Source of the DNA: Candidatus Saccharimonadota bacterium
GTDB taxonomy: Bacteria > Pseudomonadota > Gammaproteobacteria > Enterobacterales > Enterobacteriaceae
NCBI RefSeq assembly: GCF_000185985.2
Contig: NC_014909.2
Coordinates: forward strand, 330,001-362,000
Length of the DNA stretch: 32,000 nucleotides
Direction: 5' to 3'
Positions 4,041 to 14,959 of the stretch are shown piece by piece; position 1 is the stretch's first letter; each line of letters begins with the position of its first letter. The notes under the pieces were generated by a model. It saw only the letters and a program-made list of their open reading frames with translations, was not told where the DNA came from and did no database searches. The position numbers and the translations under genes were made by a program.

Positions 4041-4177
4041 TGATCAATAATAAGAGATAAGTGAATAAAAAAATCATCAGTGTTATTATATGTGAAATAG
4101 GTATATAAAGTATTAATATATTTCGAATTAATGTTTATTTTTATTAATAATTTTGAATTTAATTAATAATATATATT

Positions 4178-11249: not shown

Positions 11250-11834
11250 ATGCTACATGATTTTAAATATTTGGCTAAAAATATGGTAAATACTAAAAAT
11301 CAACAATTAATGTTAATTAAAAATAATATTAAATTTATTCCAAATTATCCAAAAAAGGGAATTATATTTAGGGATATTAGCACGTTACTTGCAAATCCTA
11401 ATGCGTATTCTACAAGTATTACACTTTTAGCTAGTCATTATCAACATTATCAATTAACAAAAATAATAGGGGTAGAGGCTCGAGGGTTTTTATTTGGAGC
11501 ACCTTTAGCTTTAATTTTAAAAGTAGGATTTATCCCAGTTCGTAAAGCAGGGAAGTTACCTTGTAATACTATAAATGAAACGTATATTTTAGAATATGGT
11601 ACAGGATGTTTAGAAATACATAAAGATTCAATTGTACCAGGAGATAAAGTTCTTATTGTCGATGATTTATTAGCTACTGGTGGTACAATTGAAGCAACTG
11701 TAAAATTAATTAGAAGATTAGGGGGAAAGGTGAATGATGCTGCTTTTATAATAAATTTAGAATATTTAGGAGGTAATTTATTATTAAAAAATATTGGAGT
11801 AAATACTTATAGTCTAGTAGTATTTTCTGAGTAA
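11250..11834 (+). CDS. apt: Adenine phosphoribosyltransferase
   Basis: PRPP-binding motif [13 protein letters not shown] is present, with near-identity to E. coli Apt ([23 protein letters not shown]). The true start is probably the ATG at 11283 ([17 protein letters not shown]... aligns with E. coli MTATAQQLEYLKNSIK...), giving about 183 aa rather than 194. Confidence 0.93.
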
Positions 11835-11891
11835 TATAAATTTTAATTATTGCCTTAATATATGATTTATGATTAAAAAACTTTACAGAGA

Positions 11892-13556
11892 ATGATTATG
11901 ACTTATCAAATTCTTGCATTAAAATGGAGACCAAAAAAATTTTCAGAGATTGTAGGTCAAGCACATATTATAAAGGCAATGATACGTAGTTTTATTTTGA
12001 ATAGAATACATCATGCTTATATTTTATCTGGAACAAGGGGATCTGGAAAAACTACGATAGCGAGATTATTTGCAAAAGGATTAAATTGTGAAATTCAATT
12101 TGCATCTAATAATGATGTATGCGGTCAATGTAAAAATTGTTTAGATATTGAATCAGGGTGTTTTATTGATCTGATTGAAATAGATGCAGCATCTAGATCT
12201 AAAGTGGAAGAAACTCGGGAATTTTTAGATAATATGCAATATGCCCCGTCTCAAAGTCAATTTAAAATTTATTTAATAGATGAAGCTCATATGTTATCTA
12301 GGCATAGTTTTAATGCATTACTTAAAACATTAGAAGAGCCACCTCATCACGTAAAATTTATCTTAATTACTACCGACCATCAAAAGTTACCAGAAACTAT
12401 ACTATCTCGATGCTTACAGTTTTATTTAAAACCTTTAAGTACTTCTCAAATTACAACTCAATTACAATATATTTGTAATCAAGAAAATATTAATATAAAT
12501 GATATACATTTATTGGAACTATTGGCTAATTCAGCGAAAGGCAGTATGAGAGATGCTTTAAATTTATTAGAGCAAGCAATTATTTTAGGGGATAGTAATC
12601 ATATAACTTCTGACGTTATTAATAATATGCTTGGGATTTTAGATGTAGACGATTCTATATCTTTAATTGAAGATTTAATGAACGGAAATATAAACAATAT
12701 AATGCACAAAATTGATCATTATTCCAATATAGGAATAGATTGGGATCATTTTTTTTCTGAAATACTTACTATTCTTCAAAAAATAGCTATAAATCAATTT
12801 ACTTCATTTTCTACCATACAACAGCATAATACAAATAATAAATCGAAAAATATTAATCATCGTATACATAATTTAAGAACGAAGATATCTCCTGAGACTA
12901 TACAATTATATTATCAAATATTTTTACTAGGTCGACAAGAATTATCTTATGCTCCAAGTTATCGCATAGGAACGGAAATGACCATTTTAAGAGCATTAGC
13001 TTTTTCTCCAATCAATATACAATCAAAAAAAAATAGCAATAAAAATGATATTAATAAATTTAACGATAATTTAAAATATTGTAAAAATTCTTTACCACAA
13101 AGCACAACTCATTTAAACATGTTAACTATCCCTAAGAGTAAAACACTTATTAAAAAACCGTTGATTTCTAATAAGATTCATACAAATACAAATACTATAG
13201 AGTTACAGAAAATACAACATCAACATAATCTTTCTGTAGTAGATAGAAACCTTCCCCAAAACATAATACCTAATGATAATTCTTCCAATCATCAACTTCA
13301 TTTAGGCGACGTGACCAAAATCTTTAATACCCATCTTGTTTCCAATAAAATTCCTTCTAATACTGTTTCTGAAATATTAAAAGCACGATCAAAATTAATT
13401 AACTATCATGACAATTATAATAAAACAATTAAAATGAAGGCTAAATCAGATAAAAACATTGAATTTCAAAAAAAGTTAGCTAATATATTAAAACGATTTT
13501 CTGATATTAATATGACAGCAATTCCTCATGACTCTAAAAATATAAAAAAAAAATGA
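11892..13556 (+). CDS. dnaX: DNA polymerase III subunit tau/gamma (DnaX), domains I-III plus a low-complexity linker; the reading frame ends at a TGA directly after an A10 run
   Basis: Walker A GTRGSGKTT, a Cys4 zinc module (C..C..C..C in NCEIQFASNNDVCGQCKNC) and the SRC motif (ILSRCLQF) are present. It aligns with E. coli DnaX through ...TILRALAFSP. After residue ~375 the sequence is an N/K/I/S-rich linker. The sequence ...AAT ATA AAA AAA AAA TGA TAA terminates the frame at 13554-13556. Confidence 0.9.
   Translation: MIMTYQILALKWRPKKFSEIVGQAHIIKAMIRSFILNRIHHAYILSGTRGSGKTTIARLFAKGLNCEIQFASNNDVCGQCKNCLDIESGCFIDLIEIDAASRSKVEETREFLDNMQYAPSQSQFKIYLIDEAHMLSRHSFNALLKTLEEPPHHVKFILITTDHQKLPETILSRCLQFYLKPLSTSQITTQLQYICNQENININDIHLLELLANSAKGSMRDALNLLEQAIILGDSNHITSDVINNMLGILDVDDSISLIEDLMNGNINNIMHKIDHYSNIGIDWDHFFSEILTILQKIAINQFTSFSTIQQHNTNNKSKNINHRIHNLRTKISPETIQLYYQIFLLGRQELSYAPSYRIGTEMTILRALAFSPINIQSKKNSNKNDINKFNDNLKYCKNSLPQSTTHLNMLTIPKSKTLIKKPLISNKIHTNTNTIELQKIQHQHNLSVVDRNLPQNIIPNDNSSNHQLHLGDVTKIFNTHLVSNKIPSNTVSEILKARSKLINYHDNYNKTIKMKAKSDKNIEFQKKLANILKRFSDINMTAIPHDSKNIKKK
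13544..13553 (+). other. A10 homopolymer at the dnaX frame break; candidate site of transcriptional slippage or +1 ribosomal frameshifting
   Basis: Counted directly as ten consecutive A (13544-13553). The +1 frame has its last upstream stop at 13543-13545 (TAA) and is open from 13546 through 14067. The two dnaX frames therefore overlap only within this run. Confidence 0.7.
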
Positions 13557-13659
13557 TAAAAATCTATTAATAAAAATTAATTCTCACAAATCTAATATTA
13601 ATACCCATAGGGTAGATTATTATATCTATTTAGATTCTAAGAAACCTTTACATGTTATT

Positions 13660-14067
13660 ATGAAAGATATTTTTCAAGAAGCGGTACAATTTGATCCTTG
13701 GATATTTCAAATATATCAGTTGTCTTTATTAAAGCCAGCTAAACAGTTACTTTTAAGTTCTTGGAAACAAATCGTAGATGATAATAAGCTTTATTTAAAT
13801 TTATTAACTTGTTTTCAACATTTGTATTCTAAAGATCTGCATAATGCTATACAATTAGAAATTAGCAATAACCTTAAAATGCCGATTAAATTATATATAA
13901 TAAAAAATGATAATTTTGTAGAAAAAACTCCAATAGAATATTTATATATATTGTATACAAATAAAATTGTACAATTAAAACAAAAAATTTTAATTGATCC
14001 AAACACAAAAATAATTCAATCTCTTTTTAATGCTAAATTTTATGAAGAGGATATTCAAATTTTTTAA
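13660..14067 (+). CDS. dnaX: Detached C-terminal segment of DnaX (tau domain V, the Pol III alpha-binding domain); probably expressed as part of full-length tau after a frame change at 13544-13553 rather than as an independent gene
   Basis: 135-aa ORF in the +1 frame relative to dnaX. FQEAVQFDPWIFQIYQLSLLKPAKQ aligns with E. coli tau AAEAIERDPWAAQVSQLSLPKLVEQ. TPIEYLYILYTNKIVQLKQKILIDPNTKIIQSLFNAKFYEEDIQIF aligns with TPLEWRQAIYEEKLAQARESIIADNNIQTLRRFFDAELDEESIRPI, the extreme C-terminus of tau. There is no Shine-Dalgarno sequence before the ATG at 13660. Confidence 0.75.
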   Translation: MKDIFQEAVQFDPWIFQIYQLSLLKPAKQLLLSSWKQIVDDNKLYLNLLTCFQHLYSKDLHNAIQLEISNNLKMPIKLYIIKNDNFVEKTPIEYLYILYTNKIVQLKQKILIDPNTKIIQSLFNAKFYEEDIQIF

Positions 14068-14290
14068 TATATATAAGATATATAAGATTATCCATATAAT
14101 TTCTGAATTCTATTATGATGTAAAATATTTTATTTGAATTAAATGAAAATATAGTTATAAATTAAAATTTATAACAATTAATCATATTAATGTAAAATGT
14201 AAAACACAATGATTTTAGAATTAAATACATTAACTGAAATAATTACTAATTTTTGTATAACTATAATAAGAAAATTTTTAATAGATTTAT

Positions 14291-14959
14291 ATGATTCGTA
14301 TTATATTTTTGGGTCCTCCGGGATCTGGAAAAGGAACACAAGCTCATTTAATTGCAGATTTGTATAATATACCTAACATTTCTTCGGGAGAAATATTAAG
14401 ACATTCATATAATACCTTCAAGTTAAATTTACCCTCTACTAACGCTATAAACCTAATAAATTCTGGAAAATTAGTAAATGACGAATTAATAATAAAATTA
14501 ATTATTAACCGTATACGCAAAACAGATTGCCAACATGGTTTTATAATCGATGGATTTCCTAGAACAATTAATCAAGCTATAGCCATAAAAAAAAATAAAA
14601 TTTCTATTGACTTTGTAATAGAATTTTACATGAAAGATGCTGAAATTATCGATCGAATTATAGGGAGACAAATTCATTTATCGTCAGGCAGAATATATCA
14701 TAAAAAATATAATCCTCCGAAATTCCACGGGATAGACGATATTACTGGAGAAAACCTAATTGTTCGAAAAGATGATACCGAAGAAGTAATACAACAACGA
14801 TTAGATCAATATTATAAATATACAGCTCCACTTTCAAATTACTATAAAAAACAAGCAAAAAAAAATAATATGCATTTTTACGTTATAAACAGTAACCAAG
14901 AGATCATGAAAATTCATACAGAATTAGTTGATATCATAAATTTGTATGCATCAACTTAA
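14291..14959 (+). CDS. adk: Adenylate kinase
   Basis: 222 aa. It has the P-loop GPPGSGKGTQ, then GF.IDGFPRT, and a LID region with GR..H..SGR.YH. The length and order of motifs are typical of Adk. Confidence 0.95.
   Translation: MIRIIFLGPPGSGKGTQAHLIADLYNIPNISSGEILRHSYNTFKLNLPSTNAINLINSGKLVNDELIIKLIINRIRKTDCQHGFIIDGFPRTINQAIAIKKNKISIDFVIEFYMKDAEIIDRIIGRQIHLSSGRIYHKKYNPPKFHGIDDITGENLIVRKDDTEEVIQQRLDQYYKYTAPLSNYYKKQAKKNNMHFYVINSNQEIMKIHTELVDIINLYAST

Follow-up and report, generated by a model that had tools for sequence, protein, structure and literature searches.

Poly-A frameshifts in dnaX across a clade of Blochmannia and a proposed slippage-dependent route to tau

Described dnaX systems and the reported break in B. 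vafer

Several bacteria follow a two-product logic in dnaX, in which one locus gives a short clamp-loader form and the long form tau, and here we compare the described systems with the dnaX gene in a stretch of DNA of 32,000 nucleotides (the window) from Candidatus Blochmannia (Blochmanniella) vafer BVAF, a symbiont of carpenter ants. In this gene a genomic frameshift inside a run of ten adenines (A10) separates the clamp-loader domains from domain V, the C-terminal domain of tau that binds the alpha subunit of DNA polymerase III (Pol III). We consider it probable, at roughly 80%, that tau depends here on a long-maintained slippage, with a gamma-like protein as the default product and a change of phase at the run restoring tau. 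Tau is described as the essential form of DnaX in bacteria, and in Escherichia coli as the form with tight binding to Pol III.

In E. coli the zero frame of dnaX encodes tau and a −1 shift gives the short gamma without the C-terminal domains; the shift takes place at an A-rich motif of lysine codons (A_AAA_AAG) with a nearby stop, an upstream Shine-Dalgarno-like element and a downstream stem-loop. For Thermus thermophilus the review of Atkins 2016 reports, after Larsen et al. 2000, that slippage on a run of nine A/T residues leads to two DnaX forms, with tau encoded by a single zero-frame open reading frame (ORF) and gamma made from the slipped transcripts. A third group are the 17 two-ORF dnaX genes of Antonov 2013 (NAR 41:6514) from Chlorobium, Flavobacterium, Coraliomargarita and others, which mostly carry A10, belong to unrelated phyla and are all −1 at the DNA level. 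In these genes tau is the recoded product. For genes other than dnaX, poly(A) frameshifts of endosymbionts are reportedly rescued by transcriptional slippage, a finding attributed to Tamas and colleagues in 2008, and Wernegreen and co-workers are said to have put it in 2010 that 'selection maintains ancient frameshifts'. According to citing papers, full-length transcripts of this class are a minority of about 30%, a value that PMC3017870 also quotes from earlier work on other frameshifted genes.

The dnaX frameshift of B. vafer was reported together with its genome by Williams & Wernegreen 2010 (BMC Genomics 11:687; PMC3017870; GenBank CP002189), who located it within the tau-only region and 3' of the ribosomal slip site known from E. 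coli, found the same break in B. floridanus and proposed transcriptional slippage as the rescue by which some level of full-length tau is made. Their comparison comprised three genomes, and B. pennsylvanicus has no break because two thymines interrupt its tract. Locus, run, join and proposed rescue are the same as in the window: an exact-sequence look-up showed GenBank ADV33702.1 (722 amino acids, B. vafer BVAF) to be the exact join with one A skipped, and RefSeq splits the locus into WP_071818259.1 (552 amino acids, 11898-13556) and WP_044026128.1 (135 amino acids, 13660-14067). An earlier note on this stretch, made from the sequence letters, had argued for a tau that needs slippage, in the manner of the endosymbiont genes mentioned above, and this agrees with the published reading and the annotated join; the same note had taken the break for a possible discovery, which it is not, as it had been in print since 2010. 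The B. vafer break is thus already known down to its annotated join and finding it again adds nothing by itself. What is added here, with 11 lineages instead of three genomes, is that the break characterises an entire clade in which both directions of shift occur, that it goes along with retention of the run and with switches of phase, and that no sampled lineage is in frame. In the searchable literature, which omits most subscription journals and so does not prove that there is none, we found no subsequent paper describing dnaX frameshifts throughout this Blochmannia clade.

The break in the window and in related lineages

The dnaX locus of the window consists of the following features.

11892..13556, + strand: dnaX zero-frame ORF, 554 codons from the first ATG (annotated start 11898, giving 552 amino acids), domains I-III and linker
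13544..13553, + strand: A10 homopolymer, putative slippery site, in-phase reading A_AAA_AAA_AAA
13554..13559, + strand: tandem zero-frame stops TGA TAA, directly 3' of the A10 run
13546..13659, + strand: spacer in the +1 frame between run and domain V, stop-free, sequence unconserved
13660..14067, + strand: tau domain V in the +1 frame, stop codon included (PF12170, alpha-binding C-terminal domain of tau)

The zero frame ends with ...AAT ATA AAA AAA AAA TGA TAA and has its stops at 13554 and 13557. The +1 frame, with its last stop at 13543-13545 and the next one at 14065-14067, is open over 13546-14067 (173 codons), and the two open frames overlap only within the A10 run, all of which the earlier note had read correctly. 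In Pfam the first ORF (11892-13553) matches PF13177 (E=2.8e-40), PF22608 (lid, E=6.4e-15) and PF12169 (E=1.4e-20), that is the clamp-loader domains I-III, which are followed by a poorly conserved domain-IV/linker region. The segment 13660-14064 matches DNA_pol3_tau_5 (PF12170) with E=2.9e-19 over profile positions 12-142 of 142 and aligns with residues 512-641 of the 643 residues of E. coli tau (PDB 8gj0_B and the C-terminal tau chain 5fku_E); the DPW...QLSL and TP.E motifs lie within this alignment. The profile search therefore bears out the assignment of the downstream segment to tau domain V, which the note had made by eye. Deletion of one A in silico gives a continuous protein of 724 amino acids (...SKNIKKNDKNLLIK...) with no other defect, again as claimed before, and the two further statements of the note, that standard decoding leads to 554 amino acids without domain V and that this reverses the logic of E. 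coli, hold as well: the first ORF carries domains I-III only, and domain V is found in the +1 frame.

A protein search returned two sets of Blochmannia DnaX. The first is full-length (660-700 amino acids) and comes from the B. pennsylvanicus-like group, B. ocreatus, B. obliquus and contigs derived from the Sequence Read Archive (SRA); the second is shorter (503-541 amino acids), is devoid of PF12170 and ends almost always with ...KKK. For truncated proteins from this search we obtained the DNA of ten relatives, namely B. floridanus (L001) and nine Logan contigs (L002-L010), each representing another SRA run (SRR32934332, 364, 365, 381, 490, 495, 582, 590 and 591), and the window completes this set to 11 frameshifted lineages. 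All ten related loci show apt followed by a short dnaX, and in nine of them a separately called ORF with PF12170 precedes adk. PF12170 matches every one of these called ORFs, which give products of 104-160 amino acids from varying starts, often inside domain V. In B. floridanus the domain V stretch is not called as a gene, yet its frame is open over 187 codons. At the same site an orthologous run of A9 to A12 is present in all ten (10/10), with domain V out of frame.

L001 (B. floridanus), 4115-4123: A9, domain V in the +1 frame
L002, 4042-4050: A9, domain V in the −1 frame
L003, 4060-4068: A9, domain V in the −1 frame
L004, 2242-2251: A10, domain V in the +1 frame
L005, 1724-1732: A9, domain V in the −1 frame
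L006, 4042-4051: A10, domain V in the −1 frame
L007, 2331-2340: A10, domain V in the −1 frame
L008, 4072-4081: A10, domain V in the +1 frame
L009, 4066-4074: A9, domain V in the −1 frame
L010, 2824-2835: A12, domain V in the +1 frame

Counting the window (A10), 5/11 lineages of the frameshifted clade carry domain V in the +1 frame and 6/11 in the −1 frame, while none of them (0/11) has it in frame. A zero-frame stop follows directly after the run (or after the run and one G) in eight of the 11 lineages and one codon later in two more.

In a neighbour-joining tree of domains I-III, which is based on this single protein, the 11 frameshifted lineages form one clade (bootstrap 96/100). Within it five lineages that are all −1 group together (100/100), L009 (−1) groups with three +1 lineages (100/100), and B. 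vafer groups with B. floridanus (75/100); the tree requires at least two changes between the +1 and −1 phase. The 19 intact Blochmannia DnaX proteins show no lysine run at this site. At the DNA level two intact genes were compared: B. camponoti reads GAT AAA ATT AAT AAA GAT, in agreement with the thymine-interrupted tract of B. pennsylvanicus (PMC3017870), and in B. ocreatus a long A run is missing. The break is old and clade-wide, and wherever it exists the run has at least nine A. As intact Blochmannia lineages do not have the run, its origin is independent of the two-ORF dnaX genes of Antonov 2013, whose supplementary text, as far as searchable, does not mention Blochmannia. Elsewhere in the gene, in-frame A10 runs do occur in intact Blochmannia dnaX (L091 2199-2208 and L092 2229-2238).

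These relatives also bear on the explanation that the earlier note had named as its main refutation, namely a homopolymer error in sequencing or assembly, with a true genome carrying A9 or A12 and an ordinary gene. Homopolymers are indeed error-prone in some sequencing chemistries. The B. vafer consensus, however, was called as the majority genotype at 542x Illumina coverage, its authors explicitly curated and annotated the frameshift (PMC3017870), and the same break recurs in B. floridanus, whose genome was sequenced separately, as well as in nine separate assemblies, in both directions and with runs of 9-12. We therefore regard an error as having a negligible chance, the smallest among the explanations discussed here.

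Selection on domain V and the spacer

Within the frameshifted clade the mean pairwise identity is 0.49 for domain V and 0.69 for domains I-III. Relative to domains I-III, domain V diverges 1.63x in this clade and 1.43x in the intact lineages, and its DPW, QLSL and NSW motifs are kept. The dN/dS values obtained with the NG86 method, which can only be compared with one another, are 0.52 for domain V, 0.27 for domains I-III and 0.9-1.1 for the domain-IV/linker region and the spacer. This pattern indicates that domain V is under purifying selection across the clade. Off-frame stops occur in the window dnaX at a density of 0.119 per codon, at which a stop-free +1 frame is expected by chance with P~0.012 for the 35-codon spacer and P~4e-10 for all 170 codons after the run. 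A stop-free tail of 160-170 codons is present in each lineage (P ~1e-9 to 1e-11 each). The spacer is free of stops in the domain V frame in 11/11 lineages (naive per-lineage P 0.012-0.04, summed log10 P = −18.4), and the argument for selection that the earlier note had drawn from the one spacer becomes much stronger in this way, the break and the open spacer being common to the whole clade. With a single indel in an A run of at least 9 nt and an otherwise intact gene on both sides, with tract and frameshift conserved across lineages and with a downstream part under purifying selection, dnaX of B. vafer resembles the class of frameshifted endosymbiont genes attributed to Tamas and colleagues.

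The sequence of the spacer itself is unconstrained (mean identity 0.25, dN/dS ~1.1), and a spacer that is unconserved yet stop-free agrees with a linker that ribosomes have to read through. It could also be thought that the gene is split, with domain V translated alone as a separate polypeptide from an internal start such as ATG 13660 in B. vafer, and the annotation agrees with this, as RefSeq calls the 135-amino acid WP_044026128.1 and, except for B. floridanus, each of the ten other loci (nine in all) has a separately called downstream ORF. These called starts, however, lie at differing positions and several of them fall inside domain V. Between run and domain V, six of the 11 lineages lack any ATG, GTG or TTG; in the remaining five no such codon has a shared position, and none of these start candidates is preceded by a Shine-Dalgarno-like GGAG. 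Only B. vafer has ATG 13660, and the 20 nt in front of it contain no Shine-Dalgarno sequence. Independent initiation would need none of the stop-free spacer, which extends back to the run in all lineages, and a spacer that stays open although it is unconserved and has no shared starts argues for translation through the junction. In E. coli tau tethers the polymerase to the clamp loader, and in B. vafer a free domain V would presumably not do so. Taken together, a split gene appears very unlikely to us. As far as annotation is concerned, such split gene calls could lead comparisons of gene content to score tau wrongly as truncated.

Domain V might also be a dying remnant in lineages for which truncated DnaX suffices. 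Blochmannia genomes are eroding and gene loss can start with a frameshift (PMC3017870), and the ratio of domain V to domain I-III divergence, which is slightly higher in the frameshifted clade (1.63) than in intact lineages (1.43), would fit such a decay. Against it, 160-170 codons have stayed open in all 11 lineages even though their domain V identity is only ~49%, the three motifs are kept, dN/dS is 0.52 in domain V compared to ~1 in the neighbouring linkers, PF12170 still matches, and tau is described as the essential DnaX form in bacteria. Decay in progress is therefore even less credible than a split gene. On the evidence given against each of them, we rejected all three readings, namely a sequencing error, a domain V translated on its own and a decaying domain V.

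Phase change at the run

For the window we propose the following route to tau, which accounts for the break by slippage. Standard decoding would end at the TGA after the run and give a gamma-like protein of 552-554 amino acids with domains I-III and linker but no binding of Pol III alpha. In a fraction of expression events the phase would change at the run by one A fewer or two more, most likely because RNA polymerase slips on the T10 template and produces mRNAs with A9 or A12, and ribosomes sliding on poly-A may contribute. The phase-changed events would lead to full-length tau of 722-724 amino acids (or one residue more), with the predicted junction peptide ...HDSKNIKKNDKNLL... for A9 and ...NIKKKNDKN... 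for A12 or a −2 shift. The break, the homology of both halves and, across the whole clade, the selection on the open downstream frame are observed here, whereas the occurrence of slippage at A10, its efficiency and its level, polymerase or ribosome, are inferred.

Transcriptional slippage is favoured as the main route by the run length of at least 9 nt, the occurrence of both phases, the missing Shine-Dalgarno-like element and the missing conserved structure. Atkins 2016 reviews efficient slippage of bacterial RNA polymerase on runs of nine As or Ts. Antonov 2013 uses the occurrence of both shift directions as a criterion for transcriptional realignment over ribosomal frameshifting, and both directions are found here inside one dnaX clade. 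Upstream of the run in the window, reading the sequence directly, we found no Shine-Dalgarno-like stimulator, as cctcatgactctaaaaatat contains neither GGAG nor AGGA. No conserved RNA structure was found downstream of the run in the 11 lineages, with z ~0 in ten of them; the window segment 13554-13633 has a minimum free energy (MFE) of −8.2 kcal/mol and z = −0.81. B. floridanus alone shows a notable hairpin (L001 4124-4203, MFE −11.8 kcal/mol, z = −2.7), the other lineages ranging from −1.03 to +0.42.

The main competing route to tau would be ribosomal, by frameshifting or sliding on the poly-A run, with −1 at A_AAA_AAG or A_AAA_AAA and with +1 or −2 in B. vafer. By its title, PMC4363877 describes ribosome sliding on homopolymeric A stretches that encode lysine. 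The heptamer A_AAA_AAG, the ribosomal slip motif of E. coli dnaX, is present in phase near the stop in L002 (4045-4051), L003 (4063-4069) and L005 (1727-1733), with the zero-frame stop directly after it in the first two and one codon later in L005, and L009 has A_AAA_AAC; a −1 shift at A_AAA_AAG in these three lineages would yield tau and not gamma. Moreover, a stop directly after the run, as in 8/11 lineages, is the layout described for reversed dnaX frameshift candidates (Atkins 2016). What speaks against the ribosome as the main route is the absence of a Shine-Dalgarno-like stimulator upstream of the run in the window and of a conserved downstream hairpin, as well as the occurrence of +1 and −1 within one clade, which according to Antonov 2013 is a mark of transcriptional realignment. 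Furthermore, all runs have at least 9 nt, a length efficient for RNA polymerase slippage, whereas a ribosomal heptamer needs only 7, and re-pairing by +1 at the 3' end of the B. vafer run lands on AAU, which should be a poor match for tRNA-Lys. We thus consider it rather unlikely that the ribosomal route is the main one, although it deserves more weight than any of the three rejected explanations.

Besides the A_AAA_AAG heptamers of L002, L003 and L005, three points weigh against a slippage-dependent tau made mainly by RNA polymerase. The genes of B. pennsylvanicus and Buchnera for which slippage has been demonstrated, as this work is cited in PMC3017870 and Atkins 2016, are genes other than dnaX. 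Bacterial RNA polymerase slippage as covered by Atkins 2016 mainly adds bases, and B. vafer would therefore need +2 or −1, events that may be rarer than +1. Finally, the NG86 dS (~0.7-0.8) behind the selection argument is probably saturated at 27% GC.

Compared to the described systems, dnaX of B. vafer is neither a programmed −1 frameshift of the E. coli type nor a gene of the Thermus type. With E. coli it shares a short form without C-terminal domains beside a long tau, and a lysine-codon, A-rich motif with a nearby stop, but the outcome is reversed and the +1 frame is required even though the run reads A_AAA_AAA in phase. The upstream Shine-Dalgarno-like element and the downstream stem-loop of E. 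coli were both not found at the B. vafer run, which is also located further downstream, ~40 residues before the residue aligned to tau 512. The likeness to Thermus suggested in the earlier note stands with respect to the mechanism, since an A/T run in dnaX and RNA polymerase slippage would lead to two DnaX forms from one gene in B. vafer as well, but not with respect to the outcome, as tau is the zero-frame product in Thermus and slippage makes gamma there, while in B. vafer the zero frame encodes the short form. A closer published analogue are the two-ORF dnaX genes of Antonov 2013, in which recoding makes tau and which likewise have two adjacent ORFs at a poly-A run of 7-10 A with a stop right after the site; they differ in being all −1, whereas B. 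vafer is +1 and its clade mixes both. With regard to the frameshifted endosymbiont genes attributed to Tamas and colleagues, slippage is reported for those other genes, and the case for dnaX made here is drawn from sequence.

A genome whose only dnaX would need an expression error to yield tau illustrates the extent to which reduced endosymbionts depend on imprecise transcription or translation, a point that was made already in 2010, and the wider sampling of lineages is a modest added result. A more far-reaching idea, which we put forward only tentatively and hold to be less probable than its opposite, is that the out-of-frame dnaX is a selectively maintained recoding switch that may have arisen once at the base of the clade and would set the ratio of gamma-like protein to tau. 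It is based on the phase having moved between +1 and −1 at least two times, with no sampled lineage in frame even though the run is mutable and changing it by one base would restore the frame; two phase switches that avoid the in-frame state are, however, weak statistical evidence for selection of the out-of-frame state. If true, the two-product logic of dnaX known from E. coli, Thermus and the Chlorobi-type two-ORF genes would have been reinvented independently, in a form specific to endosymbionts. The clade-wide break, the retention of the run and the occurrence of both directions make dnaX a good test case to distinguish a frameshift that is tolerated from one that is used to obtain two clamp-loader forms.

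A/T runs of 9-10 nt are located inside many genes of the window, and if RNA polymerase slips on all such runs, many genes would have a considerable fraction of their transcripts out of frame. No other gene split at a homopolymer was found in the window, dnaX being the sole case.

Regarding the gene neighbourhood, the window shows the order apt – dnaX – adk (11250-14959). The genes ybaB, recR and htpG, which lie between dnaX and adk on the E. coli map, are missing there in the window and in all related loci fetched, and in the window the non-coding gap between dnaX and adk measures 223 bp (14068-14290). A second A9 run in the window dnaX is found at the end of domain III (13025-13033, TCA AAA AAA AAT AGC), where a −1 slip would lead to an immediate TAG and a product of ~382 amino acids with domains I-III only; this run is probably incidental, as it is unconserved in the related lineages.

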